Assembly (NCBI GenBank): GCA_041650915.1
Contig: JBAZKE010000001.1
Coordinates: 119,770-183,769 of the forward strand
Direction of reading: 5' to 3'
Source: Patescibacteria group bacterium
GTDB lineage: Bacteria > Patescibacteriota > Patescibacteriia > UBA10025 > JAHIVO01
Length of the DNA stretch: 64,000 nt
Below the pieces are notes generated by a model. That model was not told where the DNA came from and made no database searches. It worked only from the letters and a program-made list of their open reading frames with translations. Below are positions 3,621-54,769 of this stretch, one piece after another; the stretch's first letter is position 1, and every line of letters starts with the position of its first letter. The position numbers and the translations under genes were made by a program.

Positions 3621-3621
3621 C

Positions 3622-39496: not shown

Positions 39497-41038
39497 ATGG
39501 AGAAAAAAAGCATTGCTACCGTTTTGCTCGTCGCGATCCTCGTACTCGGAGGCATACTGCGCTTTGTGACGCTGGACCGCGAACTCATTTTCGATGACGT
39601 CTTCAGCATCCACTACGCCTCCCTCCCCGCCGGTGATATCATGCACTACTCCGCGAGCGAGGTATCCGAGGTGCCGCTCTATTACCTCATGCTCCACGGC
39701 TGGATAGGAATGTTCGGATCCGGAGCGGTTGCAGCCAAGATGTTCTCACTGCTCATGAGCCTCGGCTCAATACTCGCGATGTACTTTTTGGGCAGGCTGC
39801 TGTTCAGCAAAACGGTTGGATTGGTAGCGAGCTTGCTCCTGAGCGTGAGTTCGATTGATATCCTGCTGTCCGGGGATGTCCGTGCATACACGCTGCTCAT
39901 ATTCTTGACGATCGCCTGTGTGTACCATTTTTGGCAGTACGTACGGAGCAGGAAGCTATCGGTACTCGTGTTGTTTTCAGCGTGCTCGGTTCTGGCGGTC
40001 TATACGCACTACCAAGCGTGGCTTGTCGTGCTGGCGCTTAATCTATTTATTTTCGTTTTTTATAAGCACCATAGCATCCCAGTCAGGCAGTGGCTGCTCG
40101 CCCAGGTAGCAGTCGTACTCTCGTTCGTGCCGTGGATCCTGTACAGCGTCATCCCAAACTTGCGGGATGGCATCTTCGGTACGAGTTGGACCAACCTCAT
40201 ACAGCAGCAGTATAGCAGGCTGATGGTATTCGACATGCCGCTCAACTTCATGCTCATGCCGCGCTTCACCGATAATGCCGCGTTTCAGCTCGGCATCCTG
40301 TGGTATACGCTTTTTTTCATCGCCATTGTTTTTGCCGCCGTCTCGTTCCGCCGCGGGCATTTTACGATTGACAAACAGCACGTGCCGGAGCGGATTCTGC
40401 TGCTCGTGCTCTTGCTGATCCCACTGTGCGCATTCTTCGTTTTTGTAGTTCCCGTGCCGAAATACTACGTCGTAGCAGCGATACCGCTCTATGTGATCGC
40501 TGCGTACGGCGCCTCGTCGGCGGTAAAAAAACCTGCGGTACTGTTTGGGATCGGCGCCACAGCGCTCGGGAGTACGTTGCTCTTTATGCCCCAGCTCATA
40601 CAGCTCGCCGCAGCTACGGGCGCCCAGGAGCAGGCAATCGCGTACATCCAGTCGCAGGAACAGGACGAGGATGTCATCCTCGTGCACCACTACCGCGCGC
40701 GGCTCTTCTTTGACCAGCACTACACCGGCACCGCGCGGGTAGCGGGCATTTACCCGAAAGACGATTTTACCGATCTCGACTATGAGATCGCGCGCTTCAA
40801 TTCGCTGCAGGAGCCGGTCATCACCCGGGATACTGTCGATGTATTGCAGAATATGATTTGCAGCAGCAACAGGATTTGGCTATACGCGAGCGAGCTGACT
40901 GCCGCTGAGAAAGAGAGCGGATTGCGGATCAGGGAGTGGCTTGATGATAACGGATGGAGAGCCGTGGAGCCGGAGAACAGCCCGTATGATTTCATTACGC
41001 TGTATGAGAGGGGCAGGCAGGTTGACGTAATCCGGTAG
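39497..41038 (+). CDS. Glycosyltransferase family 39/83-like (ArnT/PMT_2-like) polytopic membrane protein
   Basis: ~11 TM helices, early loop with DDVFS acidic motif, soluble C-terminal domain ~180 aa; RBS-less 12-nt gap after DedA gene. Confidence 0.6.
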   Translation: MEKKSIATVLLVAILVLGGILRFVTLDRELIFDDVFSIHYASLPAGDIMHYSASEVSEVPLYYLMLHGWIGMFGSGAVAAKMFSLLMSLGSILAMYFLGRLLFSKTVGLVASLLLSVSSIDILLSGDVRAYTLLIFLTIACVYHFWQYVRSRKLSVLVLFSACSVLAVYTHYQAWLVVLALNLFIFVFYKHHSIPVRQWLLAQVAVVLSFVPWILYSVIPNLRDGIFGTSWTNLIQQQYSRLMVFDMPLNFMLMPRFTDNAAFQLGILWYTLFFIAIVFAAVSFRRGHFTIDKQHVPERILLLVLLLIPLCAFFVFVVPVPKYYVVAAIPLYVIAAYGASSAVKKPAVLFGIGATALGSTLLFMPQLIQLAAATGAQEQAIAYIQSQEQDEDVILVHHYRARLFFDQHYTGTARVAGIYPKDDFTDLDYEIARFNSLQEPVITRDTVDVLQNMICSSNRIWLYASELTAAEKESGLRIREWLDDNGWRAVEPENSPYDFITLYERGRQVDVIR

Positions 41039-41146
41039 GTGCGCTATGCTCTATGCGCTATGGGATACGGCACAGCACAAACCAATAACAATAATAACCG
41101 CTTCGCCTCGGCGTGATTTTCATTGTGTAATTCAATTGAAGGAAAT

Positions 41147-41171
41147 CCCGCCGATGAGCGGGTCTTTTTTT
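41147..41171 (+). terminator. Rho-independent terminator immediately upstream of tRNA-Asn copy 2
   Basis: cccgc-cgatga-gcggg hairpin followed by TCTTTTTTT. Confidence 0.7.
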
Positions 41172-41173
41172 AT

Positions 41174-41249
41174 TCCGGGGTAGTTGAGTTGGTACAACGC
41201 CGCACTGTTAATGCGGATATCGCTGGTTCGAATCCAGCCCCCGGAGCCA
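41174..41249 (+). tRNA. tRNA-Asn (anticodon GTT), copy 2, CCA encoded
   Basis: Acceptor TCCGGGG/CCCCGGA, anticodon stem CCGCA/TGCGG loop CTGTTAA, T-arm GCTGG-TTCGAAT-CCAGC, 3' GCCA; sequence clearly different from copy 1. Confidence 0.85.
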
Positions 41250-41280
41250 GATCGGCTTGGCAGCTTACGGCGCATCTTAG

Positions 41281-41580
41281 TATGGCATCTGGGGATTTAT
41301 TGAGGATTTTGCCCTAAAACTCGGCAAGCAGGGGGTGCGGGTTAACGCCATCGCCCCGGGCGGCGTGGTCACTGAAGGTGTGGCTAAGATGGGCGAAGCG
41401 GCAGCTACTACTGGTATTGACATGAAGGAGATGACCAAGCAATTCATGGCTTAGATACTGCTCGGACGCATGGGCGAACCTGATGGGATTGGCGCGGCAG
41501 TATTATTGCTTGCAAGCGATGCTTCCGCGTACATGACCGGTTCAATGATTGTCGTTGACGGCGGAGCACTGTTGGCATAA
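41281..41580 (+). pseudogene. Short-chain dehydrogenase/reductase (SDR) C-terminal fragment with in-frame stop
   Basis: Frame translates ...ALKLGKQGVRVNAIAPGGVVTEG...[48 protein letters not shown]: typical SDR C-terminus lacking N-terminal Rossmann part and interrupted by TAG at 41452. Confidence 0.65.
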
Positions 41581-41730
41581 GAGGAAAGAATAGAGGATTA
41601 CTCATAGTCCATTGGACTGAAACCACAACCCTCGCATCATGCCATCCGACAGGCGCGGGTGTATTAATGGCGAGCAAAACCGCCCGTCGGAATTTCATTC
41701 AGTTTATAGACAACCTTTCATTCTGTCCGC

Positions 41731-41771
41731 TTGACAGTATACAATATCGTATGATATCATGATGATATCAT
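41731..41771 (+). promoter_or_regulatory. Promoter (TTGACA ... TATCAT) with tandem 10-bp palindromes ATGATATCAT-G-ATGATATCAT
   Basis: TTGACA 41731-41736, -10-like TATCAT 41755-41760; palindromes at 41751-41760 and 41762-41771, 11-bp spacing, just upstream of SPFH ATG 41793. Confidence 0.55.
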
Positions 41772-41792
41772 TAACATTAACTCACAAATCCT

Positions 41793-42662
41793 ATGATTTC
41801 CGAACGTACAGTCCTGCATCAGAAAGGTATTCCCGTGGTCGTTATTCTGCTTGTATTGCTTATCGCTTGGGTAGCGTTATCTATCTGGGCTGGCTCCGAA
41901 GAGAACGAGATCGGCGTCACCGTTGCGGTTTTCCTGTTGACCGTGACGATATTTTGCTGCCGTGGACTCATCATCGTGAACCCGAACCAGGCTACGGTCG
42001 TGCAGCTGTTTGGGAAGTACTCAGGCTCGGTCAAACAGGCCGGCTTTTGGTGGGTCAACCCGTTCACGACCAGAAAAACGGTTTCCTTGCGGATCCACAA
42101 CTTCGAGACCGGCAAGCTCAAAGTCAATGACCAGGATGGCAATCCGATAGAAATTGCCGCCGTCGTGGTATGGAATGTCGTCGATACGGCTGAAGCCGCG
42201 TTCAACGTGGAAGACTACAAGGATTTTGTTCACGTGCAGAGTGAGGCCGCAGTTCGCAACTTGGCAACCTCATTCCCCTACGATGCGCACGAAGAGGGAA
42301 AGCAGTCTTTGCGCGGCAATACCAATGAGATAGCGGTCGAGCTGCAGAAAGAAATCCAGGACCGCCTCGCCAAGGCCGGAATCACGGTCATTGAGGCGCG
42401 CATCAGCCACCTGGCGTACGCGCCGGAAATTGCCAGTGCCATGCTCCGGCGGCAGCAGGCGAACGCCATTATCGCCGCGCGCCAGCGCATTGTCGAGGGT
42501 GCGGTCAGCATGGTCCAGATGGCGCTGACGCAACTGGAGGAAAGCCATACGGTGAAGCTCGATGAGGAACGGAAAGCTGCAATGGTATCAAATTTACTGG
42601 TGGTTTTAACCAGTGATCGCGATGCGCAGCCGGTTGTGAACACCGGTACGCTCTATCAATAA
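41793..42662 (+). CDS. SPFH/band-7 (stomatin/prohibitin-like) domain membrane protein
   Basis: N-terminal TM then SPFH core (LIIVNPNQATVVQLFGKYSG...FETGKLKVNDQDGNPIEIAAVVVWNVVD) and C-terminal coiled coil. Confidence 0.75.
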   Translation: MISERTVLHQKGIPVVVILLVLLIAWVALSIWAGSEENEIGVTVAVFLLTVTIFCCRGLIIVNPNQATVVQLFGKYSGSVKQAGFWWVNPFTTRKTVSLRIHNFETGKLKVNDQDGNPIEIAAVVVWNVVDTAEAAFNVEDYKDFVHVQSEAAVRNLATSFPYDAHEEGKQSLRGNTNEIAVELQKEIQDRLAKAGITVIEARISHLAYAPEIASAMLRRQQANAIIAARQRIVEGAVSMVQMALTQLEESHTVKLDEERKAAMVSNLLVVLTSDRDAQPVVNTGTLYQ

Positions 42663-42841
42663 TGGCGAACGCGAACGGGCAAAAGCGGTTTTTACTGCGC
42701 GTAGAGTCCGGTTTGTACGATGCGCTCCAGCGGCTGGCGCGGGACGAATACCGGAGCGTCAATGGGTTGATCGAGTGGATGCTTGCTGACGCGCTGCGCA
42801 AGCGGGGCCGGCTCCCGCAGAGCCGTGTGCCGAAGGGATAG
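42662..42841 (+). CDS. Small ribbon-helix-helix (CopG/Arc-like) putative DNA-binding protein, 59 aa
   Basis: MANANGQKRFLLRVESGLYDALQRLARDEYRSVNGLIEWMLADAL fits RHH beta-strand+two-helix pattern; TAATG overlap with SPFH stop; below 60-aa ORF-track cutoff. Confidence 0.45.
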   Translation: MANANGQKRFLLRVESGLYDALQRLARDEYRSVNGLIEWMLADALRKRGRLPQSRVPKG

Positions 42842-43116
42842 TGCCTGAGGCATGAATTCTGTTTGAGGAGCGCCGCTGCGAAGTTTGCCATTGGCAGCGG
42901 CGTGCCGCTGGCATCAGCGGGCAATATTAGAAAAAACGGTTACCATCGGGCAACCGTTTTTCGTTGAAAGAGCATTGATGCGCAAGATTGGATGAGCGCC
43001 TAACAGGACGTTGTTCCGGCGCTCGGCGGCAGGGCCATCTGGTTCAGGCTCCTGATTTCCCGCAGGACCAACAGCGGGCCGCGGCCATTTTCAGCATTCA
43101 TGGCAAACCTCTTCAC

Positions 43117-43398
43117 TCAATTCCAGACCTGCCCAACGCGGGCGCGCTGATCAGGGTCCAGTTCCCGAGCTGCGAGCTCCTTGAGCGCGAATCGGTACAG
43201 TTCTGGCCGCAGGGTTGGGAAATGGTGTGGGCTGGCCAATGTGATCAGCTGGCCGAATGTCAGAGCACTCACGGCTTCCTGTACTGCGGTTCCTGATTCA
43301 AGCGCATTCATGGAGTTTTCCCAGCCTGCGTAGACTTCCATGAATTTTTCCGGCAATCCATGGGGAAAGCTGGAGCCCAGTTGCAACTGCTTGTCCAT
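43117..43398 (-). CDS. Hypothetical protein, 93 aa
   Basis: Strong AGGAGG RBS 7 nt upstream of ATG (minus strand, 43398); no recognisable domain. Confidence 0.55.
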   Translation of the reverse strand: MDKQLQLGSSFPHGLPEKFMEVYAGWENSMNALESGTAVQEAVSALTFGQLITLASPHHFPTLRPELYRFALKELAARELDPDQRARVGQVWN

Positions 43399-43615
43399 GT
43401 GAGGACCTCCTTCTGTTTTTGGTGTTGAAAAAAGAACATAAAAAAACCGGCCTCGTTGGCCGGAATTCTGGAACGGTAGCTCTATTCGTTAAAAAATATT
43501 ATGCAGCACCAAGTGGCCAAGAGGATAAGGATTCCTTGTGGCGTGGCGGGATGTGGCTATAGAGAGTTGCGTGTTGCATACGAAGGCATATTATCATAAT
43601 GTATTGTCATGTCAA
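43399..43615 (-). promoter_or_regulatory. Putative cis-regulatory leader (attenuator/riboswitch-like): promoter, ~120-nt leader, intrinsic terminator, then RBS of 43117-43398
   Basis: Minus-strand promoter TTGACA (plus 43610-43615) -16 nt- TAATAT (plus 43588-43593); terminator hairpin ccggcc-aacga-ggccgg + U7 (plus 43440-43463); leader segment cuuggcc can pair with terminator 5' arm ggccaa (antiterminator). Confidence 0.4.
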
Positions 43616-43695
43616 TGGGTGCGCGCCTGAGGAACAATCCACGCGGAGCATAGCACCCGTGACCTCCTTTTTCCTATACGCACAGTGGCCTGCGG

Positions 43696-43704
43696 TGGTA
43701 TAAT
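43696..43704 (+). promoter_or_regulatory. Extended -10 promoter (TGgTATAAT) for 43739-44137 gene
   Basis: TGNTATAAT at 43696-43704, 35 nt upstream of ATG 43739. Confidence 0.45.
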
Positions 43705-43738
43705 AACCCTATCTTATTCATCATTATCAAATCATAGT

Positions 43739-44137
43739 ATGGCAGACCAAGAAAAAGAGAAAGGAAGTTGCCCTGAGTGCGGGTATCCTGCCGAAGCAGG
43801 GCATAGTCCGGCTTGCCCGGCAGGGGCGGGAAAAAGTGAAAATCAAGTGCCGGAAGCTGGCGAAAAAGAGGCCGATTCTCAGGAGCAGTATGCTGATTTT
43901 AGTGAAGTCGCCGACCTGTTTGCTGCAATGAGTACAGGCGATACACAGCGCGTGACTCTAGCGAATGGGCGTGAAGTGTTATTGGTTGTCGAAAAAAAAC
44001 TCGTCAGTATCGTTGAGGAAGTAGGCGGTGAAAAAATAGTGAGCCGTTTTTATCCTAATGGTACGGAGTTTGACCGGAAGTCCTTTCAGACGAGTGACGA
44101 GCTCCGGTGGGCACGGTTGAAACGGCGGGAGCGCTAG
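43739..44137 (+). CDS. Hypothetical protein with N-terminal zinc-ribbon-like CPECG...ACP motif
   Basis: MADQEKEKGSCPECGYPAEAGHSPACPAG then acidic linker and small C-terminal domain; start at ATG 43739 (upstream part of ORF is GTG-initiated and unlikely). Confidence 0.5.
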   Translation: MADQEKEKGSCPECGYPAEAGHSPACPAGAGKSENQVPEAGEKEADSQEQYADFSEVADLFAAMSTGDTQRVTLANGREVLLVVEKKLVSIVEEVGGEKIVSRFYPNGTEFDRKSFQTSDELRWARLKRRER

Positions 44138-44245
44138 GTTATTTTCACTCGCAGTTGGGATAGTCTTGCTGCCTGGGCGTTAGGCAAAGGTATCCCGTGA
44201 GCCGGCACTCTTTTTTATTAGCGGCAGATGCGGTAGAATAGGGGC

Positions 44246-45028
44246 ATGCCTGAGACGGGTATCCGTATAATGAGCGCCCAAAATCCGAGCGTCAAAGCCC
44301 TCAAGAAGCTCCAGCATAAGAAGTACCGTGACGAGCGAGGCCTTTTTGTCATTGAGAATCCACTGACGGTGAGGGATGGCATCGCGCGCGGTGCAGTGGC
44401 CGAGGAGCTGTACCTCACCCCGGCATTCGAAGAGCGGTACGGGGAAGCGTATCGTAAAATCATATCGGCCGTTCCCGCGGAGAAGGTGTACCGGGTCACG
44501 GATGCCGTGCTGGCATCGTGCGTTTCTCTCGAGCAACCGCAGGGCATCGCGGCGGTGTATGCGAAGCCGGCTGAACGCGTTGATACGGAGCGGTCAGTCG
44601 TTTTTTTAAATGGAATTGCAGATCCGGGCAACGTCGGCGCGATCGTGCGATCGTGCGCTGCGTTTGGGATCGCTTCAGTCGTTGGCGACCAGGAGAGCGC
44701 GGATTTTTTCAATCCGAAGGCCGTCAGCGCCGCGAAGGAGTCGATTTTTTCCGTCGGGCTGTCGCGGAGCAGTGCTGGTTTTCTACGGCGAATACAGAAA
44801 AATATGCCCGTGTACGGCCTCGAAGCACACGGCGATTCTTTCCTTGCTGGCGTGCCGTTGAAGCACCCGCTCTGCCTCGTCTTCGGGAGCGAGGCGCACG
44901 GGCTGGGCGACGACGTACGTTCATACGTCGATAAAACCGTAACGATCCCGATTGATACGTCCCGGGTCGAGTCGCTCAACGTTGCAGCTGCCGCGGCAAT
45001 TGTACTGCAACTCATGCGCCCATCTTAA
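44246..45028 (+). CDS. TrmH/SpoU-family RNA 2'-O-methyltransferase
   Basis: SpoU_sub_bind N-terminus and SPOUT motifs (VFLNGIADPGNVGAIVRSCAAFG, LVFGSEAHGL, IPIDTSRVESLNVAAAAAIVL); true start may be MSAQNP at 44270. Confidence 0.8.
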   Translation: MPETGIRIMSAQNPSVKALKKLQHKKYRDERGLFVIENPLTVRDGIARGAVAEELYLTPAFEERYGEAYRKIISAVPAEKVYRVTDAVLASCVSLEQPQGIAAVYAKPAERVDTERSVVFLNGIADPGNVGAIVRSCAAFGIASVVGDQESADFFNPKAVSAAKESIFSVGLSRSSAGFLRRIQKNMPVYGLEAHGDSFLAGVPLKHPLCLVFGSEAHGLGDDVRSYVDKTVTIPIDTSRVESLNVAAAAAIVLQLMRPS

Positions 45029-45039
45029 CCGTAGCAGCT

Positions 45040-45588
45040 ATGTTCAACGAACTTCTCGACATTGTCGATGATCGCGGGCAGCTTACCGGCGAACGGAAAG
45101 CCCGGTCGGACGTGCACGCGCAGGGGCTGTGGCACCGGGTGGTCCACGCGTACCTGTACCGTGCCCGCGGCGGCACAATCGAGCTGCTCGTCCACAAGCG
45201 GTTTGCCGGGGCCGACTCTGATCCGAATGCGTGGGATACCCGTTTCGGCGGGCACTGCATCGCTGGCCAGGACTACGATGAAACGGTTTTGGAGGAACTG
45301 AAAGAGGAGGCCGGCATCGAGGTACCGCTTGCGAAGCTCACCCGGGGCCCGGTACTGAAGCGGCACAAGGGCAATAATAAAGAGTTTACCGCCACCTACT
45401 TTTTAGAATATGCTGGTGGTGCGGCTGCGCTTTCGTTTCCAGACGGGGAAGTCACAGACGCCCGGTGGATGCCGATTGAGGAGATTGAGCGCGCGCTCAA
45501 GACAGAACCAGCTGGGTGGGCGCCTCGCGCAACCGGATTCCATGAGATCAAGGATTTTTTGCGGCGCGCCGCGAGCAAATCGGCATAG
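45040..45588 (+). CDS. NUDIX hydrolase
   Basis: Nudix box GGHCIAGQDYDETVLEELKEEAGIE. Confidence 0.75.
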   Translation: MFNELLDIVDDRGQLTGERKARSDVHAQGLWHRVVHAYLYRARGGTIELLVHKRFAGADSDPNAWDTRFGGHCIAGQDYDETVLEELKEEAGIEVPLAKLTRGPVLKRHKGNNKEFTATYFLEYAGGAAALSFPDGEVTDARWMPIEEIERALKTEPAGWAPRATGFHEIKDFLRRAASKSA

Positions 45589-45644
45589 TCTTGGAGGATT
45601 CGTATGCACATGCCAATAATTACTAAGCTGTAACCATAATACGT

Positions 45645-48179
45645 ATGAAAACGATTCGGATGGGGTATCTGCTCTTTGCGTTCCTTGCCGTCGGCGGATT
45701 GCTCATCGGCGCACAGGCCGCACGAGCAGCGGAAAATATCACGTGGGCGCAAGCTAACGAGGACGGCTTTGGCGATCCCGATCGTATGGTTGTGTATGAT
45801 TTTCAGGAATTCGACGGGATGCTCTATGCCTGCGTGGTTCATGGAGTGGCCGATTATAGCATCATGGCATACGATGGAACTGAATGGACATTAGCATCGA
45901 TAACCGGATTCGGGGACTTCAATAACAGCGATTGCTATCATATGGCCGTATTTAATGGCAACCTGTATGTGGGTACCCGGAACGACGTAACGGGCGCTGA
46001 GGTCTGGGCGTACGATGGTACCGACTGGTCCCAGGTGAATACGGACGGTTTTGGGGACGCTGCTAATTCATCCATTTGGGGCATGTATGGGGATAACGAT
46101 TATTTATATGCGACAACACTGAACCTGACAACGGGAGCGCAAATATGGGCGTATGACGGCACTGACTGGACGCAAATTGTTGCTGACGGATTCGGGACAA
46201 CCTTCACCCTATACGCAGTCCCCATGGTTACGTTTCAGGATAAGCTGTTTACAGGAACGTACAATGGGAACGGCAGCCAGCTGTGGGCGTATGACGGCAC
46301 TGACTGGACGCAAATCGGCACTGACGGATTTGGAACAACGAACATCGGGATTATCAGCCTCGCCGTGTACGAGGATCGGCTGTTTATCGGCACATACAAT
46401 CCAATAACTGGCGCTGAAATTTGGACCTATGACGGCACGAATCTGGATTCCCTGATGACGGGAGGGTTCGGGAGCGCGGACAACTGGACCGTTCTTTCGC
46501 TTGCTGAGTACCACGACCTGTTATACGCGAGCACCACGAACGAAGCGAGTGGCACTGAAGTGTGGGTGTACGAGCTTGACGAGTGGACCCAGATAAACGA
46601 TGACGGCTTCGGAAATGCATTGAATTTTCGGTGCCGCGATCTCGCGGTGTGGGAGTACGCGCTGTATGGTAGTGCAGATAATTTAGTAACCGGAGTTGAG
46701 GTATGGGTTGGCAGCGTGGATGACAGCGGCGGCCCAGTTGTATTGTCTCCATCACCGGCAGCAAATGAAATCAGCGTCGCCTCTGACGCCGATGTTTCAT
46801 TTGAAATTACCGACGCTGTTTGGGACGTTGATCTCGGGACGCTGAGCGTGGTATTTGGCGATACGGATGTGATTCTCGGAGGCGTTTTCCAAGCTGGATA
46901 CAGCGGCACGATCGAGCACAACGGCGAGAACGGGTATGTCGTAACGATTAATCCTGCTGATAGTTTTATACCCGGAGAGCTTATCAGCGTTGGTGTTGCC
47001 GCGGATGATGTCGTGGGAAATGCGATGGCCGGTGCATGGACGTTCACCATTGATCGCATCCGGCCCTCCCTCGGCATCGTCGTTACCCCCGCCTCAGCAG
47101 GCGGCCCCAACGTCCGGGTTGTGGATGATGCTGGCACCCAGATTTCCTCCTTTTTTGCCTATGACCAGTCTCTCCGCATGGGCCTGGAAGTGGAGCAGGC
47201 GGACATTGACGCGGACGGGGTGAACGAGATCGTGATTACGCCCGGTGCAGGCGTCGAATCCCGCATCAAGGCGTTTGAATTGGACGGCACGGAAATGGCA
47301 AACACACTCGCGTTCAACGAGGGCTTCACCGGCGGGGTGAACGTCGCGACCGGGGACTTTGACGGCGACCACGCGGAAGACATCGCGGTAACCCCGATCG
47401 GCGCCGGCGGCCCCAATATCCGCATCTATACGTACGATGCAACCGAAGAAGCATTTGAGCTTCTGGACTGGTTTTTTGGGTACGGCGAGGAATTCCGCGG
47501 TGGCGTGAATGTGGCAGCCGGCGACCTTGACAATGACGGTATTGACGAGCTCATCGTGACCCCCCGGGGCGCCATGTCGCCGGAGGTGAAGGTATTCCGG
47601 TACAATGCCGGCACTCAGGCATTTGACCTCGTCGACAGCGTGACCGCGTACCAGGATACGTTTTTCGGCGGGGTGCAGGTAGCCACGGGTGACGTGGATT
47701 CTGACGGCAGTGACGACATTATTGTCGCCCCGTTCCTGAATGGCGGCCCCAATATCCGCATTTACTCGCTCAACGGCTCGGATGAGCTCGAGCTGCTGGA
47801 CTGGCTCATGGCGTACGATAACAGCTACCGCGGCACGCTTTCCATGCAGGTCGGGGACACGGACGGCGATGGTTACAACGAAGTCGTCGTCGCTCCCAAG
47901 ACCTTGGGTGATTCCACGGTCAAGGTGCTGCGCTATGACGGCACTGATTTCGAAGAAGTCGATTCATTCATGGCGTATGACGAGCATTTCACGGGCGGGG
48001 TAAACCTGTTTGTGCACGACACTGACGCTGACGGTTTTGACGAGGTCATGGCGTCGCCGGCCTCCCATGGCGGCCCGAACCTGCGCGTGTACGATTACGA
48101 TTCCGATGTCGAGGTGCTCAAAGACTGGTTTTGGGTATTTCCCGAGGGTTTCCGGGGCGGAGTGAATTTTGGGAAGTAA
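45645..48179 (+). CDS. Large secreted repeat protein: N-terminal ~48-aa propeller-like repeats (WAYDGTDWTQ...DGFG) plus C-terminal FG-GAP/VCBS-like repeats
   Basis: Signal peptide MKTIRMGYLLFAFLAVGGLLIGAQAARA; seven or more N-terminal repeats; C-terminal repeats with GGPN(I/V)R(I/V)...F.AYD..FRGGVNVA.GD.D.DG.DE(I/L)(I/V)V.P. Confidence 0.7.
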   Translation: MKTIRMGYLLFAFLAVGGLLIGAQAARAAENITWAQANEDGFGDPDRMVVYDFQEFDGMLYACVVHGVADYSIMAYDGTEWTLASITGFGDFNNSDCYHMAVFNGNLYVGTRNDVTGAEVWAYDGTDWSQVNTDGFGDAANSSIWGMYGDNDYLYATTLNLTTGAQIWAYDGTDWTQIVADGFGTTFTLYAVPMVTFQDKLFTGTYNGNGSQLWAYDGTDWTQIGTDGFGTTNIGIISLAVYEDRLFIGTYNPITGAEIWTYDGTNLDSLMTGGFGSADNWTVLSLAEYHDLLYASTTNEASGTEVWVYELDEWTQINDDGFGNALNFRCRDLAVWEYALYGSADNLVTGVEVWVGSVDDSGGPVVLSPSPAANEISVASDADVSFEITDAVWDVDLGTLSVVFGDTDVILGGVFQAGYSGTIEHNGENGYVVTINPADSFIPGELISVGVAADDVVGNAMAGAWTFTIDRIRPSLGIVVTPASAGGPNVRVVDDAGTQISSFFAYDQSLRMGLEVEQADIDADGVNEIVITPGAGVESRIKAFELDGTEMANTLAFNEGFTGGVNVATGDFDGDHAEDIAVTPIGAGGPNIRIYTYDATEEAFELLDWFFGYGEEFRGGVNVAAGDLDNDGIDELIVTPRGAMSPEVKVFRYNAGTQAFDLVDSVTAYQDTFFGGVQVATGDVDSDGSDDIIVAPFLNGGPNIRIYSLNGSDELELLDWLMAYDNSYRGTLSMQVGDTDGDGYNEVVVAPKTLGDSTVKVLRYDGTDFEEVDSFMAYDEHFTGGVNLFVHDTDADGFDEVMASPASHGGPNLRVYDYDSDVEVLKDWFWVFPEGFRGGVNFGK

Positions 48180-48244
48180 ATTGGTTCAAATGAAAAAGAG
48201 GACGTCCGGAATGGGGCGCCCTCTTGATAAGATGCTTCTTCAAT

Positions 48245-48769
48245 CTATCGCGGCCACTTCGCCGTGAAGTAGTCAATCGCGAGCCTGAGGGCAGGCAGCT
48301 GATGGGGAATGAGATTCGGCGGGAGATTATCCACGTCGTAGAATGCGCCGACCGTTGGTTCCCTGTCAGCCGTGCAGAGATAGATAATCTCCACGGTCTT
48401 GCCACGAGGGGTATCAATGAGCAGCGGCGGTTCATTGCCGTATCCCACGTAGTGGGCGTCAACGAGTTTCGCGTTAAGCTCATTATTGAAGATGCGTTGT
48501 ATTGCATCCTCAAAAGTGCTGTCGGTTTCCCTGACAACGCTGCCGGTAAAGTGCAGCTGGCCCCTGAAGTCGGGATCGGTGGCGTCCCGTTCAATCAGAT
48601 GGACCAGGATGTTGCCATCCACACGCTTGAGGAGGATCACCTCCACCGAAGCGTATGGGATTTTTGTTACCATGGCTCGAAACACGGAATAGGGCCACGG
48701 CTGTGGCAGGCGTTCGAGCAGTTCGACGAGCGTGCGCTCGTCATCAGGCGTCCAGGAAGTAGTGGTCAT
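48245..48769 (-). CDS. Hypothetical protein (possible degenerate NUDIX-like fold)
   Basis: GGAGGG RBS 8 nt upstream of ATG; GQLHFTGSVVRETDSTFEDAIQRIFNNELN loosely Nudix-box-like but lacking RE-EE core. Confidence 0.5.
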   Translation of the reverse strand: MTTTSWTPDDERTLVELLERLPQPWPYSVFRAMVTKIPYASVEVILLKRVDGNILVHLIERDATDPDFRGQLHFTGSVVRETDSTFEDAIQRIFNNELNAKLVDAHYVGYGNEPPLLIDTPRGKTVEIIYLCTADREPTVGAFYDVDNLPPNLIPHQLPALRLAIDYFTAKWPR

Positions 48770-48972
48770 GAAGTTGACCCTCCATAGGCGCTTCCTTCCC
48801 CTGGAAAGAGGTCGCGGGTTGCGTAACTCTAGCCTCGAATAGAAGGAGGTATTAATAGAGTGTTCTTATAAAAAAGAACTAGGCATGATAGCTTATGCGG
48901 GGCGGTTTGTCAAGCCCAGGCGAAACACGGGACGTGGTATACTGAAGAAAAGATTTTTTAACCATGCTCACT

Positions 48973-49221
48973 ATGGCAGGAAAAGAGTATCTCAAAACAA
49001 TGCTGCAGCTCGCGACAACGGCGTTCGGGCTCGTCGCGGCACTCGCCTGGAACGAAGCAATTAAGGCGCTGTTCCAGGAAGTATTCGGCTCAACGTCGAA
49101 TATTATCGGTTTATTCGTCTATGCGATTGCCGTCACGGTAATCGTTGTGGCTGTTACAACGAGGCTCGCAAAACTAGCGGAAAAAGCGGGCATTCAAGAG
49201 CAAAAAAACAGCAGCAAGTAA
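48973..49221 (+). CDS. Hypothetical small 2-TM membrane protein
   Basis: MAGKEYLKTMLQLATTAFGLVAALAWNEAIKALF...IGLFVYAIAVTVIVVAVTT; extended -10 TGgTATACT promoter at 48938-48946. Confidence 0.5.
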   Translation: MAGKEYLKTMLQLATTAFGLVAALAWNEAIKALFQEVFGSTSNIIGLFVYAIAVTVIVVAVTTRLAKLAEKAGIQEQKNSSK

Positions 49222-49345
49222 TTCTTGGGGAATTTCATTATTCTCTCTTGACAGAGATGCCTTTGTAGTGTACGATGCGGAGCTCGTTCGTATTACTGTT
49301 CTTTGTGAAAACTGCGTTATACGCAATAGCACAAGAGGTGTTGAG

Positions 49346-50266
49346 ATGGGGTTAATGCAGATTGTAGTCAAGGGAGAGCCCATCGTTCTTGACTTAGGCG
49401 AACCGATCCATGTTGGCGCGTTAGATCGCGCTCATCGTATTCTCGATGAACGCATGCCCGAGCTTTTTAATCGTTTACCTGCGGACCACATGTGGCGCAA
49501 GAAGCTGCAGCATGTGGTCGTGACGCCGGAGCTCGTCCATCCAATAATCGCCAGTTTTCGAGGCGAATTGAGCAATGAGCTGTTTCAGCTGTTGGTCTTC
49601 ATCTACCGGGCCCATGATATCGGGAGAGCGATTGAAGCGCTGAAAAAACTCGGCTCGCTGCCCGGTGATTATCGGCAATTCGAGCACCACGGTGAAGAAT
49701 CAGTGAATCTATTGCAGGAGTGGGGAGTGATTGATGGGACCCTTTCGGCGGGAGCATGGGAAGTCGCCCAGTACGCGATTCTCCACCACTTCGGCGCATG
49801 GACACCGACCCTTCCGGAGTCGCCTGAGTACCTCGATAACGTAAAGTACTTCGTGACGGTCTTGCTCCGCGATATCGACAAGTTGAGCACGTTCAAGGAG
49901 ACTACGGCGCAGTATCTCTACCTGCGCTGGAAGAAGGAGCGGGAGATTGCGATGCACGGGATACCCGAGCGTCATGCGGTCATCCCCGCCTCGTTTCTGT
50001 CGACGTTTGAGCGACGGGAAGTTCCGGACTTCCATGGTGTGAAACGGCGCAATGAGGAGCGTTCATATGAGGGGTACATGCTGTACTTCTTAGCATGGCT
50101 CTTCGATGTGAATCTGGCGCGCGTCATGGCAGAGATTGTCGAATCGAATGCGATACGGTGGCTGCTGCAGTACTTCAGTGAGCAGCTGCCGGAAACGGAC
50201 TTCGGGCGAATCAAGAGGACGGTCAGGGAGTACCTTTCCGGATATGGAATTGCGGTCGACGAGTAG
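49346..50266 (+). CDS. Hypothetical protein, 306 aa, no recognisable domain
   Basis: GAGGTG RBS before ATG 49346; ORF with uniform coding character; upstream 26 codons of the tracked ORF lack RBS. Confidence 0.55.
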   Translation: MGLMQIVVKGEPIVLDLGEPIHVGALDRAHRILDERMPELFNRLPADHMWRKKLQHVVVTPELVHPIIASFRGELSNELFQLLVFIYRAHDIGRAIEALKKLGSLPGDYRQFEHHGEESVNLLQEWGVIDGTLSAGAWEVAQYAILHHFGAWTPTLPESPEYLDNVKYFVTVLLRDIDKLSTFKETTAQYLYLRWKKEREIAMHGIPERHAVIPASFLSTFERREVPDFHGVKRRNEERSYEGYMLYFLAWLFDVNLARVMAEIVESNAIRWLLQYFSEQLPETDFGRIKRTVREYLSGYGIAVDE

Positions 50267-50295
50267 TTGAACGCAGTCCAACGAGGAGTAGCGTT

Positions 50296-50330
50296 AGCGG
50301 CTGAGGTTTTTTGCTCCAGCCGCTTTTTTA
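50296..50330 (+). terminator. Rho-independent terminator
   Basis: agcggctg / cagccgct 8-bp stem with 13-nt loop followed by TTTTTT. Confidence 0.6.
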
Positions 50331-50389
50331 TTGTGGAGAAGTTTGTTATACTGGAATTAGCAATAATAAACTAACTAGGGGAGCAGGTT

Positions 50390-50878
50390 ATGCGTATGAA
50401 AAAAGCATTACTCATCGCTGCGGTTTTCGTGCTCGCCGTTACGCTGAGTGCGTGCGGTGAAAAAGCTGCCGAGACGCTCATTGAAAGCTCGACGAACGAA
50501 AGCGCGGACGTTGATATTGACGATGACAGCCTTTCGATCAACACGAACGGCAGCTCGATGCAGTTCGGGGATGCGGCGAGTGTACCTGATAATTTTCCGT
50601 CAGATGTTTACGTGATAAGCGGAACGGTGCTGTCATCGCTCACGATCGATGAGACGGACGGGTTCCAGGTGGGAATTGAAACGGACGATTCAGTTGCGGA
50701 CGTGAAAGCTGAGTACCAGTCGCAGCTCACCGATGACGGCTGGGAGATCACTGCTACTCTCGACGTCGGGGACGGCATGACCATGACCGGCGAGAAGGAA
50801 AACCGTTATGTGACCGTTTCGGCGAATGTCGTCGATGACAAGACGAACGTCACTATCATTACCGGTTCAAACGAGTAG
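50390..50878 (+). CDS. Hypothetical lipoprotein
   Basis: Signal peptide with lipobox LSAC (MRMKKALLIAAVFVLAVTLSACGEK); acidic Asp/Thr-rich mature region. Confidence 0.6.
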   Translation: MRMKKALLIAAVFVLAVTLSACGEKAAETLIESSTNESADVDIDDDSLSINTNGSSMQFGDAASVPDNFPSDVYVISGTVLSSLTIDETDGFQVGIETDDSVADVKAEYQSQLTDDGWEITATLDVGDGMTMTGEKENRYVTVSANVVDDKTNVTIITGSNE

Positions 50879-50999
50879 GTTTTCCAAAAACAGGAAAGAA
50901 TATACTCTACCCCCGAATTTTTTCGGGGGTAGTTTTCTATTGAAAGAACGTTCAATTTATGCTATAATGTAGATACAAATCAAAATAAAAAACAAAAAA

Positions 51000-51230
51000 A
51001 TGAAAGAAAAGTTTATATCCGCCGGGATTGTAAGCTTACTGATTGGAGTAGGAGCTTTTTTGATTAGCATTTCCGGATCAGCCGCACAGGGTGAGGTACA
51101 GGCTGCCGCTGATTTTACCATTACCGTTACTGGCAGAGTGATGCTGTCGGACGGCGAAGACGAAGTGCTCGTCATGCCCCGTTCAGGTGGCGGCCCCAAC
51201 GTCAGGATCATTGAGCCGGGGGATATTTAG
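51000..51230 (+). CDS. Small ORF: signal peptide + C-terminal FG-GAP fragment duplicated from end of downstream gene
   Basis: Last 22 aa (DGEDEVLVMPRSGGGPNVRIIE) and 66 nt (51150-51215) nearly identical to 3' end of 51246-53978 gene. Confidence 0.4.
   Translation: MKEKFISAGIVSLLIGVGAFLISISGSAAQGEVQAAADFTITVTGRVMLSDGEDEVLVMPRSGGGPNVRIIEPGDI
51150..51215 (+). repeat. Direct repeat copy 1 (66 nt, 61/66 identical to 53899-53964)
   Basis: gacggcgaagacgaagtgctcgtcatgccccgttcaggtggcggccccaacgtcaggatcattgag. Confidence 0.8.
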
Positions 51231-51245
51231 AAATAACATAAAAAT

Positions 51246-53978
51246 ATGAGTAAACATTTTGCATCCTCTTTGATTGTTATTTTTTCTTGCACGATTGTCA
51301 TACTCTTTTTTTCCACATTAGCAATTGATGTGGAAGCAGTGACTGAATCAACGCTACCTATTATTACAGTTACGGGGACATTATACGGGTATGATGATAC
51401 CCCTGTAAATAGGGGCGTAACAGTGATGCTCTATGTTGGACGAGATAATAGTCCTTATAATGAACAATTTCAAATAGGGCAGGGAGATACGGTAAGTAAT
51501 GAGGGTGATTTTTCGGTTACCTCGTGGGATTGGGGATCGTTGGGGGGTTACTTTGAGGGTGGCACCGATCCGTACACTCCAGAGCAGCTCGCAGCATACG
51601 ATCCAGAGACATACCACGTGTACGTTACTTTCATTGGTGAGAGTAAGCAGATGATTCGTGATGTAAATGGTGATTTTAAAAAGCAGCATCGGCCTGATCG
51701 AATTGATCTTGGGATCGTAACCAGCAATAAAACATTTAAACTTGGGGATATTAGTTTTCGAGAACCAAACGTGTATGGGCGAATTCTGACGGATGATGGA
51801 ATCTACACTGCTGAGACGAGAATGTTGATCACTCCAAAGGGAGAAGAAGCAACATATGATGACCAGATGATTAGTGATATCATGGGTTTTTGGATGTATC
51901 GTGAGCCAGGTGAGTACACGGTGAAGCTCTATGATGAGTATGATGAGTGGGCAGGAGGATTTCAGCCCGCAATAACGGAATCAAATTTAATGCGCACCTT
52001 TGACATAACTATAGGTCAAAATGGTATTCAGTCTGCAGATTTTTTTGAAAATGATAATCACCTTGATGAAGAAGGATACATCGCAATACCGCAAGGTGTT
52101 GTTTCGCCATCAATTGATTCTCTGCTAGCAGAAATAAATACAACTACACTTTCAAAAGACACTGTCGGCCTCAACGTTCACCTCGCCATCACGAGCGGAG
52201 CAGGCTATGACGCCTCAATGATTGAAGCGTTGACGGAGTCTGAAACGCGGTGGGTCCGGGAACGTTTTGACATCGAATCATACGCTCAGCCGTCGGTACC
52301 AGAGCGCTATGAAGAGGTGCGCAATTTGTACCGGGACAACGGGATGAATATTGTTGGAATGATCGCCGGAGGCGTTGACCAGCTTCCAAGCATTGATGGC
52401 TGGAAAGAGTTTGTAACCGAAGTAGTTACCGCCCACAAAGACTACATCAAGGTGTGGGAAATGTGGAATGAGCCGGATCTGGAAAAGTATTTTTTACCGA
52501 ATACTGTTGCCGCCTACATTCCATATCTCAAGGCCGGATACGAGGCGGTTAAAGCGGTCGATCCTGATGCGCTTGTCTTGCATGCGCCGCTTTCATGGCC
52601 AAACGCCTCATTCCTCGAGGGTTTGTACCAGCAGGCAGGGGATTATTTTGACGAACCGTCTTTCCATGTGTACTACTGTGATCGATATAAAGCAGACGGT
52701 AACCTGGATTCGCTGCAGCGCGACTTCGCAAGCGCACTTGCCGTCGTGAACAAGTACCGCTCGTCGGATAAAATCTGGATTACCGAGCTTGGGTGCTCGA
52801 CCTATAGTGATTACTCGGAAGATTTTCAGAATCAGTACCTACAAGCAGCGGTACCATATTTACTCTCGACAAACGAAGTTGAAAAAGTATTATTGTTTAA
52901 TGTTATTGATAGAAACACTGGCGATGCATATGAGGATGATTTTGGTTTACTGAAAACAGATTTTTCTGCAAAACCTGCGTGGGAATGGTATATGACTTTT
53001 CAGGCAGGGACTTCAGTTTCAAATCAATACACCGCCCCCGTCGCCTCCGGCACATCCTTTTTCGCGTACGCCCAATCCCTCCGGGGCGGGTACCAGCTCA
53101 CGTCAGGGAACGTCTTGGGTTCCGATGCTGCCGAGATCATCACCGGCACGGGCGACGGCATGGGCCCCCACGTACAGGTATTTGACGCAAACGGCAACAA
53201 GAAAGCCCAGTTTTTCGCGTACGACCAGTCCCTTCGCAATGGCGTCACGGTCTCAGCCTGCGACGTGAACGGTGACGGCTACGACGAGATCGTCACTGCC
53301 CAGGGCACGGGAGGCTGGCCTGTAGTAAGGATCTTTGATTCAGGCGGCACCCAGGTAGCCGATGAGTTCTACGTTCTGGACGGCAAATACACGGGCGGCG
53401 TCCACCTCTCGTGCGGCGATACGGACGGCGACGGTACCTCCGAGATCGTGGTTGCTGCCCGCCAGGGCGGCGGCCCCCACGTACTGGTGTACAGCATGGA
53501 AGGCAAAATCCTCACCAATTTCATGGCATACGACCCCAACTTCAGAGGGGGCATCAACATCACCACCATTGACATGGACGGGGACGGCAAGGATGAGATC
53601 GTGACCGGACCCCAGTGGGGCGCCCCCCATGTCCAGATATTCCAAATCAGGCCCAATGAGCTCAAACGGCTCTCCCCCGGGTTCTACGCGTTCAACACCG
53701 ACTACCGCGGCGGGGTGCAGGTTGCCGGGCTTGATACGGACGGCGACGGCACCAAGGAGCTCATTGTCGGTGTCGGCGACAACGCCACGCCTTTAGTCCG
53801 CCGCTACAACATCCGCGAAGAACTCCAGCAGGAATTCTTCGCCTTCGGCACCAATTACCTTGGCGGCGTCATGGTCGCAGGCGGCGATATTGATGCTGAC
53901 GGCAAAGACGAAGTGCTCGTCATGCCCCGTTCAGGTGGCGGGCCCAATGTCCGGATCATTGAAACATCCGAAATATGA
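51246..53978 (+). CDS. Secreted clan GH-A (GH5/GH39-like) glycoside hydrolase domain fused to C-terminal FG-GAP repeats
   Basis: Signal peptide; WEMWNEPD (acid/base NEP motif) and ITELGCST (nucleophile TELG motif) of clan GH-A TIM barrels; C-terminal repeats FFAYDQSLRNGV...GGPHV... homologous to 45645-48179 C-terminus. Confidence 0.65.
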   Translation: MSKHFASSLIVIFSCTIVILFFSTLAIDVEAVTESTLPIITVTGTLYGYDDTPVNRGVTVMLYVGRDNSPYNEQFQIGQGDTVSNEGDFSVTSWDWGSLGGYFEGGTDPYTPEQLAAYDPETYHVYVTFIGESKQMIRDVNGDFKKQHRPDRIDLGIVTSNKTFKLGDISFREPNVYGRILTDDGIYTAETRMLITPKGEEATYDDQMISDIMGFWMYREPGEYTVKLYDEYDEWAGGFQPAITESNLMRTFDITIGQNGIQSADFFENDNHLDEEGYIAIPQGVVSPSIDSLLAEINTTTLSKDTVGLNVHLAITSGAGYDASMIEALTESETRWVRERFDIESYAQPSVPERYEEVRNLYRDNGMNIVGMIAGGVDQLPSIDGWKEFVTEVVTAHKDYIKVWEMWNEPDLEKYFLPNTVAAYIPYLKAGYEAVKAVDPDALVLHAPLSWPNASFLEGLYQQAGDYFDEPSFHVYYCDRYKADGNLDSLQRDFASALAVVNKYRSSDKIWITELGCSTYSDYSEDFQNQYLQAAVPYLLSTNEVEKVLLFNVIDRNTGDAYEDDFGLLKTDFSAKPAWEWYMTFQAGTSVSNQYTAPVASGTSFFAYAQSLRGGYQLTSGNVLGSDAAEIITGTGDGMGPHVQVFDANGNKKAQFFAYDQSLRNGVTVSACDVNGDGYDEIVTAQGTGGWPVVRIFDSGGTQVADEFYVLDGKYTGGVHLSCGDTDGDGTSEIVVAARQGGGPHVLVYSMEGKILTNFMAYDPNFRGGINITTIDMDGDGKDEIVTGPQWGAPHVQIFQIRPNELKRLSPGFYAFNTDYRGGVQVAGLDTDGDGTKELIVGVGDNATPLVRRYNIREELQQEFFAFGTNYLGGVMVAGGDIDADGKDEVLVMPRSGGGPNVRIIETSEI
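53899..53964 (+). repeat. Direct repeat copy 2 (66 nt)
   Basis: gacggcaaagacgaagtgctcgtcatgccccgttcaggtggcgggcccaatgtccggatcattgaa. Confidence 0.8.
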
Positions 53979-54769
53979 TTGAAGGCGTGCCATACGGTCC
54001 AATCCTCGCTCTCGCGTTTATATCCGGAATCACGACAATAATCGGCGTGGCGTTCGCGTACCTGTGCAGGCGGAGCTCCACTATCATCGTGGCGGGCATC
54101 GGTTTTTCAACTGGCATTATGGTGCTTATTTCAGTTTTTGAGCTCCTTCCGGAGGCGGCCAGCGAATCGGGCATTGCCGCAACGTTGTTTGCTGTAGCTC
54201 TTGGGGTTGGGCTTGCGATTCTGCTTAACCATATTATTCCGCATACCCACCTCATACGCGAGGGACGCCGTCCACACAGCGGGATGGGCCGGTGCCATGA
54301 ACCGCCCGGGAGGGGCCGCCACCGGATGGTCGTCGCCGCGTATATGATTGCACTCGGGCTCGTGCTGCACGATGTGCCTGAGGGATTTGCAATGGCTAAC
54401 TCGTATATCCACGCTCCCAACCTGGGAATCCTCGTCGCGATTGCGATAGCGCTCCACAATATTCCGGAAGAATTTGCCATGGCGATACCGCTCATCGCTG
54501 CGGGGAAGAGCCGGTCATCGGTTTTTAAAATCGGTTTTATATCAGGATTAGCCGAACCCGCCGGGGCGCTGCTCGGGCTCGTCGCTGTTCAATTAATGAG
54601 TGGCATCAATGCATACCTGCTCGGAGCGACAGCCGGAATCATGATCTACATATCTCTCCATGAACTGTGGCCAATGGCACATAGCTATAAAAAACCAGGG
54701 CTCCTCGCGATGGGCATGCTCGGAAGCGTGGCTGTGTTTGTTGCCCTAACCCTGCTCCTGCCGGAGTAG
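53975..54769 (+). CDS. zupT: ZIP-family zinc/metal transporter (ZupT-like)
   Basis: HDVPEGFAMA and HNIPEEFAMA motifs, 8 TM, His-rich loop; ATGA overlap with upstream gene. Confidence 0.8.
   Translation: MIEGVPYGPILALAFISGITTIIGVAFAYLCRRSSTIIVAGIGFSTGIMVLISVFELLPEAASESGIAATLFAVALGVGLAILLNHIIPHTHLIREGRRPHSGMGRCHEPPGRGRHRMVVAAYMIALGLVLHDVPEGFAMANSYIHAPNLGILVAIAIALHNIPEEFAMAIPLIAAGKSRSSVFKIGFISGLAEPAGALLGLVAVQLMSGINAYLLGATAGIMIYISLHELWPMAHSYKKPGLLAMGMLGSVAVFVALTLLLPE

Follow-up and report, generated by a model that had tools for sequence, protein, structure and literature searches.

In bacteria generally, the decay of tandem paralogs leaves gene remnants behind, and gene conversion between neighbouring copies leads to concerted evolution. 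Modular and polymorphic surface or toxin loci also carry orphan fragments, as in the orphan modules of the Rhs and contact-dependent inhibition (CDI) systems, which serve here as an analogy only. We describe a locus that invites both comparisons, in a 64,000-nucleotide stretch of a Patescibacteria genome (contig JBAZKE010000001.1, positions 119,770 to 183,769 of the forward strand; hereafter the window). Two 65-nt direct repeats, R1 and R2, lie here near the 3′ ends of two adjacent open reading frames (ORFs), a small one of 76 codons and a large gene for a predicted secreted protein with a glycoside hydrolase (GH) head and an FG-GAP propeller tail. The repeat pair is probably the leftover end of a lost upstream gene of a tandem family, homogenised with its neighbour by gene conversion, and not the trace of a recent foreign insertion or of a cassette.

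As in tandem-paralog decay, a truncated copy lies beside an intact member, the shared tract is more alike within the genome (61/65 bases) than between genomes (51–54/65), and intact counterparts exist in relatives. Unlike the usual remnants, the putative relic in the window has kept both of its ends in frame as well as its promoter, so that it is still an ORF and probably the leader of the GH transcript. The analogy with Rhs and CDI would lie in a module common to neighbouring genes, in variable modules, and in a truncated fragment that shares a recombinogenic tract with the adjoining full gene; however, the window has no toxin/immunity pair, the variable module is the N-terminal one and the conserved module the C-terminal one, the fragment is situated upstream, and no evidence of switching was found.

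The elements at and between the repeats are as follows.

51000–51230, + strand: 76-codon ORF, annotated by NCBI as hypothetical protein WC505_00655 and read here as an in-frame relic of an upstream family gene
51000–51149, + strand: 5′ half of the relic, encoding MKEK, a 20-residue hydrophobic segment, SGSAAQG and ITVTGRVMLSDG
51139–51155, + strand: junction zone, made of TGATGCTG, a 4-nt indel and GACGGC, where similarity to the FG-GAP 3′ end starts
51150–51214, + strand: R1, within the last 26 codons of the FG-GAP propeller module, 61/65 against R2
51215–51230, + strand: ancestral-type tail and stop (EPGDI-stop), kept by the relic alone
51231–51245, + strand: AT-rich spacer of 15 nt, from the relic stop to the GH start
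51246–53978, + strand: GH/FG-GAP gene for a 910-residue predicted secreted protein (from Pfam, alignments and a structure model)
53898–53962, + strand: R2, close to the 3′ end of the GH/FG-GAP gene
53963–53978, + strand: replaced GH tail (ETSEI-stop), where the 5′ region of a ZIP gene abuts the GH gene and sets the right edge of the repeat

Between R1 and R2, 61 of 65 bases agree (94%), or 61 of 66 (92%) with one more base included, and the two copies have a perfect core of 37 nt (51157–51193) in common. Gapped blastn carries the match on to 51139/53891, adding TGATGCTG across the 4-nt indel. Both ORFs encode the same peptide here (DEVLVMPRSGGGPNVRIIE), three of the four base differences being synonymous, and by our own estimate the chance expectation of such a match in 64 kb is ~1e-22. 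Since the remaining FG-GAP repeat copies between 44 and 56 kb are just 60–79% alike, the R1/R2 pair clearly stands out among them. The original prediction of a real repeat of about 92% over 66 nt, with one and the same FG-GAP terminal peptide in both ORFs, is thus confirmed, and its position for the upstream copy fits; its second copy was off by one, the start being 53898, and the perfect core is longer than the 35 nt that it had counted. R1 and both of its flanks are reproduced in a second assembly, an ENA contig (L001; ERZ27247363 k141_215290), reached through the 76-residue ORF, that is 100% identical to window positions 41000–53342, possibly from shared reads, and that ends before R2. This MEGAHIT-style contig stops at window position 53342, inside the FG-GAP tail and 556 nt short of R2, perhaps because strains vary there or because the propeller repeats complicate the assembly graph.

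We have compared the locus with orthologs in four other Patescibacteria assemblies (L055/L056, L057, L058 and L060). All of these are colinear with the large gene and contain both Glyco_hydro_cc and FG-GAP, at 71, 68, 57 and 53% identity and with lengths of 908, 912, 896 and 938 residues, respectively. Since the architecture is kept end to end in four orthologs, the fusion of GH head and propeller tail is old. The earlier proposal of a foreign GH module inserted or recombined into a native FG-GAP gene is not supported, in view both of this conservation at 53–71% identity and of a GC contrast that recurs in two of the orthologs (see below).

The relatives also show what may once have preceded the GH gene. 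In L057, the gene of a 1115-residue NHL/FG-GAP protein stops 50 nt before the GH start, and no convincing promoter or terminator was seen between the two genes. L058 has a gene there that likewise ends in FG-GAP and that the contig border truncates; it stops 35 nt before the GH start, and its last 65 nt are 89% identical to those of the GH gene against a background of ~70%, and both genes are called intact. The corresponding spacers measure 15 nt in the window and 18 nt in L055. The L058 stretch (1–5004) holds three family genes in tandem, X(FG-GAP)-GH-GHb, of which GH and GHb are 53% identical over residues 152–643 and their first ~150 residues cannot be aligned.

Synteny between L055/L056 and the window takes in the AF_1845 lipoprotein gene, a promoter, a short ORF, the GH gene and the MerR/B12, DUF1858, CorA, PYNP, ABC and SufBD genes. 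The short ORF of L055/L056 has 44 codons and includes 35 nt that are a degraded copy of the family 3′ end (…NVSIIEAGDE-stop), 18 nt before the GH ATG; in L055 this copy is identical to the end of its own GH gene at 29 of 35 positions, as counted by hand from the alignment. The ORF begins right after a TGcTATAGT promoter and has no signal peptide.

Turning to the small ORF of the window, its start (MKEK, hydrophobic segment, SGSAAQG) looks like a signal peptide by inspection, and the following ITVTGRVMLSDG is similar to ITV[TS]GTLYgyDGTP, a motif found in the N-termini of the GH family. The first 52 residues score 10.0 bits against a hidden Markov model (HMM) of the hydrolase family N-termini, compared with 4.45±1.23 for shuffles, 9 out of 2000 of which reach the score, and on the DNA level the 5′ half has a weak similarity to the 5′ ends of GH genes (p ~0.02–0.03). 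We have also considered the 5′ half as a diverged FG-GAP blade, which would need no deletion junction; however, it scores 1.4 bits with the blade HMM, a value reached by 545 of 2000 shuffles. Because it does not fit the FG-GAP blade profile, an N-terminal origin is preferred. A recent tandem duplicate of the GH gene with an internal deletion was rejected as well, the N-termini being ~24% identical as against 94% for R1/R2.

The 3′ end of the small ORF preserves what the GH gene of the window has lost. Its tail GCCGGGGGATATTTAG (EPGDI-stop) matches the L055 GH tail (EPGDV-stop) at 14 of 16 positions, while only 6 of 16 agree with the tail that the window GH gene has now. At 76 residues the product is far shorter than the proteins of 346–1174 residues that carry the propeller tail colinearly; it has no family match in Pfam or NCBIfam, and among 5.8 billion proteins only the ORF itself was matched, listed as a hypothetical protein from a Patescibacteria metagenome-assembled genome (MAG). 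The small ORF thus combines 3′-end homology to family genes with gross truncation and a lack of homologs, and it has intact counterparts in L057 and L058. The suggestion that the large gene's own 3′ end had been displaced and persists as the small ORF was half right: the ORF does carry a leftover FG-GAP gene 3′ end, but in L057 and L058 the corresponding sequence closes an intact gene that lies upstream. The junction zone at 51139–51155 is presumed to be either the deletion junction or the edge of a conversion tract.

The evidence for gene conversion comes from the comparison between genomes. R1 and R2 each match the GH ends of L055 and L057 at only 51–54 of 65 bases (54/65 for R1 with either), and at seven positions R1 and R2 have a base in common that neither of these orthologs has. 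Because of these shared derived bases, the common ancestor of R1 and R2 must postdate the split from L055, and since a relic is already in place in L055, gene conversion in the window lineage is indicated. Paralogs that are closer (61/65) than orthologs, with shared derived states, have a parallel in L058 (89% against ~70%). As an alternative timing, the relic of the window could be of independent, later origin, from a paralog whose tail had already been homogenised.

According to the explanation that we favour, the family would consist of secreted proteins with a variable N-terminal head and a conserved ~310-residue C-terminal FG-GAP propeller, often encoded head to tail in tandem, and the 910-residue protein, with its PslG-like clan GH-A head, would belong to the long-standing members, conserved by vertical descent. 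The 76-codon ORF would be the remains of a former upstream member, of which the last 26 codons are joined in frame to the 5′ part, from the promoter and start codon through the signal peptide to the first beta-strand motif. The interior of this member may have been lost by an in-frame deletion with its junction near 51139–51155, and the retained promoter would now transcribe the relic, the GH gene and probably the ZIP gene. Gene conversion between the neighbours, after the split from the nearest known relative, would have made R1 and R2 alike, and a later rearrangement would have set the ZIP gene on the last four codons of the GH gene, giving the repeat its right edge. We infer that the small protein has no function.

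The flanking features that enter this explanation, together with the distant paralog of the window, are listed here.

45645–48179, + strand: paralog with WAYDGTDW-type repeats, Big_5 and FG-GAP repeats; distant, and not the source of the repeat
50390–50878, upstream of the small ORF: AF_1845-family lipoprotein gene (Pfam, from the L001 gene table)
50907–50932, + strand: intrinsic-terminator-like hairpin with an 11-bp stem (7 GC pairs) followed by a T run, which ends the AF_1845 gene
50940–50968, + strand: predicted strong sigma-70-type promoter, TTGAAA-17-TGcTATAAT, an 11/12 match with an extended −10
53975–54769, + strand: ZIP metal transporter gene, whose ATG overlaps the GH stop (ATGA)

The predicted promoter would drive the small ORF and the GH/FG-GAP gene, and probably the ZIP gene too, no terminator-like site being found on the + strand from the promoter to the end of the GH gene. 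L055/L056 have TTGCCA...TGcTATAGT at the equivalent position. Rfam gave no RNA family in the leader, and most genes of the window, the GH gene included, lack a Shine–Dalgarno motif. On the other side, the gene order is GH-MerR(−)-DUF378-ZIP in L055 and GH-ZIP-MerR(−) in the window. Since the tail behind R2 has been replaced by sequence from upstream of the ZIP gene and the two gene orders differ, the right edge of the repeat is a rearrangement breakpoint and not a recombination site.

The 910-residue product has, in order, a signal-peptide-like N-terminus, an all-beta region of ~225 residues (~40–265), a GH-A region (~300–590) and a propeller (591–910). It scores above the Pfam cut-offs for Glyco_hydro_cc (PF11790, 33.1 bits; cut-off 21), FG-GAP (PF01839, 47.7; cut-off 22.1) and FG-GAP_3 (PF13517, 51 over four stretches; cut-off 26.9), but not for GH39 (PF01229, 19.7; cut-off 26). 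NCBIfam gave zero matches for this ORF as for the 76-residue one, and an exact-protein lookup of the 910-residue product returned no record. The motifs WNEPD and ITELG are present in the head, where VWEMWNEPDL aligns with WQVWNEPNL of PslG and IWITELGCS with IWSTEWGWS, and E409 and E514 are invariant in the five orthologs. We take the glutamate of N-E-P to be the acid/base of PslG and that of T-E to be the nucleophile. The description of the gene as a signal peptide, a glycoside hydrolase head and an FG-GAP tail thus agrees with the Pfam matches and the motifs, and from its sequence the product is predicted to combine a (beta/alpha)8 hydrolase of clan GH-A with an FG-GAP beta-propeller.

A structure model of the product was of moderate confidence, with a mean predicted local distance difference test (pLDDT) value of 60.8. 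Residues 310–552 alternate between strands and helices, at pLDDT values mostly of 35–85, and in Foldseek the head model matched PslG, 5z3k and a GH10 xylanase with template modelling (TM) scores, normalised to the target, of 0.41–0.50. The propeller is all-beta, with pLDDT values of 70–89 in most 10-residue blocks; its best Foldseek matches are integrin alpha propellers (E ~1e-8), Bap1 was also matched, and ~six units of ~52 residues are visible in its sequence, with repeated DxDxDG-type calcium-loop motifs (by inspection).

The head is like PslG of Pseudomonas aeruginosa and other exopolysaccharide hydrolases of GH39-like clan GH-A (PDB 4zn2 and 5bx9; also 5jvk, to which the head was aligned as well) in its NEP and TE-x-G motifs and its Glyco_hydro_cc score, and the modelled beta/alpha pattern and the Foldseek match with PslG would suit such a fold. 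It differs in its sub-threshold GH39 score and in a weak sequence relation (E ~1e-6 to 1e-9), and the window protein, a hydrolase by sequence prediction, has ~265 extra N-terminal all-beta residues as well as the C-terminal propeller. In the same way, the tail resembles the FG-GAP propellers of integrin alpha and of Vibrio cholerae Bap1 (PDB 6mlt) in its Pfam scores, its DxDxDG motifs and its Foldseek matches; unlike these, it is a C-terminal module found on many heads, and its model is of moderate confidence.

This last property became clear when the tail alone was run with phmmer against 1.84 billion representatives, where 3383 proteins matched at E<=1e-30. Many of the best matches are single and colinear, at the extreme C-terminus of proteins of 346–1174 residues, which marks the tail as a portable C-terminal module under many heads. 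Propeller tails of ~310 residues that are 69–77% identical to that of the window occur on a NAGPA head (L055 7413–9200) and on an NHL head (L057 3738–7085). Across the orthologs the tails are 87, 82, 74 and 69% identical to that of the window and the heads 64, 61, 47 and 52%; tail identities largely follow head identities across genomes, with a slight within-genome excess in L057 and L058. A metagenome scan with a GH-head alignment yielded one true ortholog, already known, the 79 other kept loci being GH relatives at 23–53% over their best segments. Literature searches on FG-GAP in Patescibacteria or the candidate phyla radiation brought up only one paper, which touches briefly on FG-GAP surface proteins of Peregrinibacteria (PMC4736985).

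As for the paralog at 45645–48179, the expected resemblance to the GH tail holds at the protein level (31–35% identity) and fails at the DNA level, where blastn gives no match. This 844-residue protein has N-terminal repeats with a 138–141-nt period ('WAYDGTDWTQ…DGFG'), two of which, at 46146 and 46284, are 89% identical in DNA, and it has a weak match to TIGR04534 (ELWxxDGT).

The composition of the large gene is uneven. The head (51246–53015) has a GC content of 44.6% and a GC content at third codon positions (GC3) of 0.43, and the tail (53016–53975) has 60.3% and 0.75, so that the predicted GC shift within the gene stood up to measurement. Relative to the 46 long ORFs of the window (GC3 0.661±0.067), the head lies 3.4 standard deviations under the mean and the tail is in the native range. 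However, the low-GC tract (~50880–53000) extends leftward beyond R1, which forms a GC-rich islet within it, and ends ~900 nt short of R2; therefore the repeats are not its bounds. GC3 is 0.69 in R1, 0.43 in 51231–53015 and 0.44 in the 5′ half of the small ORF. A similar contrast between head and tail is found in L055 (0.51 vs 0.71, with locus genes at 0.61±0.06) and L057 (0.32 vs 0.58, with the genome or locus at 0.47±0.06), and is not repeated in L058 and L060, whose GC is low. Between the window and L055, the head has reached saturation at four-fold sites (identity 0.29, chance 0.26), those of neighbouring genes being identical at 0.32–0.39 (chance 0.27–0.31).

Because a scar older than this saturated split should have faded, the contrast is no evidence for a recent event. 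We read the low-GC head and high-GC tail as a trait of this gene in mid-GC genomes and not as a fresh insertion scar. It is possible that the contrast came from the replacement of the head by a lower-GC one, or from GC-biased conversion together with codon bias in the repeated tail. Low constraint was rejected as the cause of the low GC3 of the head, since the AF_1845 protein, only 26% identical between the window and L055, still has a GC3 of 0.65. Along the alignment of window 51246–53975 with L055 10001–12724, four-fold identity is at chance level over codons 0–500 and 0.49–0.59 over codons 500–905, which is 0.06–0.22 above the per-family chance, an excess that tops most flanking genes.

Several points weigh against a purely vertical history with decay and conversion. 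Four-fold identity between the window and L055 is higher in the tail (0.59, chance 0.46) than in the head (0.29, chance 0.26), which could reflect separate module histories or a stronger codon bias in the tail, and no GC3 value in the window is lower than that of the head (0.43), which may have some history of foreign origin or recombination. The searched collections hold only five orthologous loci, none closer than 71%, and in none of the five is there a full-length gene between the AF_1845 and GH genes. The 5′ halves of the window relic and of the L055 short ORF have no DNA homology above shuffles, so a shared ancient relic is argued from position, promoter and the 3′ 35 nt, and independent origins in both lineages are possible. 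Neither short ORF has lost the ancestral reading frame, a possible hint of a retained function, and the evidence from the N-terminal motif is modest (10 bits, p ~0.005).

Some of these points would be accommodated by a homology-guided replacement of the head, which we regard as unlikely. In such an event, DNA of another family array, comprising the 3′ end of an upstream FG-GAP gene, the spacer, the signal peptide, the GH head and part of the tail, would have recombined into a resident family gene, with the FG-GAP tail as the right arm and a GACGG microhomology in the resident N-terminus as the left join. The small ORF would then be the resident N-terminus joined to the 3′ end of the donor's upstream gene, and the low-GC head would be donor DNA. 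This would suit the native-like GC3 of the arms (R1 0.69, tail 0.75) around a segment (51231–53015) that is 3.4 standard deviations low at 0.43, the saturation of four-fold sites in the heads and not in the tails between the window and L055, and a modular family in which many heads share one tail; orthologs in genomes of 36–40% GC could have been low-GC donors, and in the related genome CAZJUO the context differs, AF_1845-VTT-ZIP and X-GH being on separate contigs. However, L055 has the same relic-GH layout at the same locus, so that the event would predate the saturated split and its scar should have faded. The GH tails track their own heads phylogenetically (87/82/74/69% vs 64/61/47/52%) and not resident paralogs, no close donor was found in the ortholog searches or the metagenome scan, and the 5′ half of the small ORF has a low GC3 itself (0.44). 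A broader proposal, that the FG-GAP tail and the 3′ end of the preceding gene serve as portable homology arms for head swapping between arrays or cells of DNA-scavenging Patescibacteria, seems to us distinctly doubtful. Between the arms would lie the spacer, the signal peptide and the variable head, and GC3 values of 0.69 and 0.75 around 0.43 would be the footprint. The 37-nt core would also allow a one-step deletion of the GH gene, which would leave the ZIP gene directly behind a strong promoter.

Decay and conversion, the reading we prefer, is compatible with a short ORF that has since been kept because it is useful, either as an upstream ORF ending 15–18 nt before the GH start and aiding its translation or as a small secreted peptide; we give this little chance of being so. 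Both the 76-codon ORF of the window and the 44-codon ORF of L055 start at an ATG just behind the conserved TGcTATA[AG]T promoter and stay open, in the ancestral frame, until they reach the ancestral stop, for which we estimate chances of ~0.03 and 0.05 from base composition. The organism rarely uses Shine–Dalgarno sites, and three of the four R1/R2 differences are synonymous, the substitutions being too few for a selection test. Set against this are the absence of any homolog among 5.8 billion proteins, the unrelated 5′ halves of the two ORFs (that of L055 without a signal peptide), the lack of an Rfam or structured-leader signal, and a 26-residue propeller fragment that presumably could not form a blade alone.

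A mobile cassette moved by site-specific recombination between attachment-like repeats, which the 65-nt direct repeats around one gene and the close AF_1845 and ZIP genes of CAZJUO without a GH gene might evoke, has hardly any probability in our view. The called genes of 41–56 kb, which around the GH gene include SpoU methylase, NUDIX, FG-GAP protein, DUF5654, HD, AF_1845, ZIP, MerR/B12 and DUF1858, are free of integrase, transposase and recombinase domains. Both repeats are coding sequence, from the homologous ends of paralogous modules; intact genes of L058 are bracketed likewise, the composition boundaries (~50880–53000) lie away from R1 and R2, and the ZIP rearrangement accounts for the right repeat edge. 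The comparison with relatives lacking the GH gene, which had been put forward as a check, turned up no clean empty site, since in CAZJUO a VTT gene lies between AF_1845 and ZIP and the other AF_1845 contexts are unrelated; with no integrase, no attachment-like context and composition edges off the repeats, the cassette alternative of the original prediction finds no footing. A collapse or misjoin at the repeat during assembly is very unlikely too. The source is a metagenome assembly, and L001 ends at 53342 within the FG-GAP tail; however, R1 and both flanks recur with 100% identity in that second assembly, the repeat (65 nt, with its 37-nt core) is shorter than the final k-mers of 141 in the contig identifiers, four orthologs align colinearly with the large gene up to its last four codons, and the relic lies where L055 has one too.

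If the preferred explanation is right, the locus would be a tidy case of gene-family decay and concerted evolution by a known mechanism, and it would correct the reading as horizontal transfer or a cassette that composition alone would suggest. It also documents a rare, uncharacterised surface protein of Patescibacteria, a PslG-like hydrolase with an integrin-type propeller that has five orthologs among 5.8 billion proteins, and it shows the ~310-residue propeller as a widespread C-terminal module on many heads. Orthologs whose synonymous sites are saturated can have a persistent head/tail GC3 contrast in common as a trait of their family, which calls for caution when recent transfer is deduced from GC. 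Head swapping, if true, would amount to a recombination-based diversification of surface proteins in episymbiotic bacteria.

The flanking genes have affinities of their own. The ZIP and AF_1845 proteins of the window are 53% and 49% identical to those of CAZJUO, and 28% and 26% to those of L055. The CAZJUO locus (L005, 8739–10756) reads AF_1845-VTT-ZIP, with a comparable stop/start overlap; in L055 the ZIP gene lies at 14123–14872, and six genes downstream are syntenic between the window and L055 at 56–82%. That ZIP and AF_1845 are nearer to CAZJUO despite the synteny with L055 suggests local mosaicism or rearrangement around the locus. A scan of genome contigs with the ZIP protein gave 58% for the closest relative and no syntenic empty site besides the CAZJUO locus, and a homolog search with the AF_1845 lipoprotein gave nothing above 52%, none of the four contexts inspected being syntenic.

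Elsewhere in the window, positions 30200–35500 form a second stretch of lower GC (0.47–0.50; GC3 0.51–0.55 vs the 0.66 mean), with genes for DUF1048 (30269–30667, − strand), a HAAS-like 278-residue ORF, a 495-residue ORF without a Pfam match and YceG (34433–35494). In another Patescibacteria contig (L142, 9469–10266), a heliorhodopsin gene, unrelated to the repeat, lies one gene (a 255-residue ORF) downstream of an AF_1845-family lipoprotein gene.

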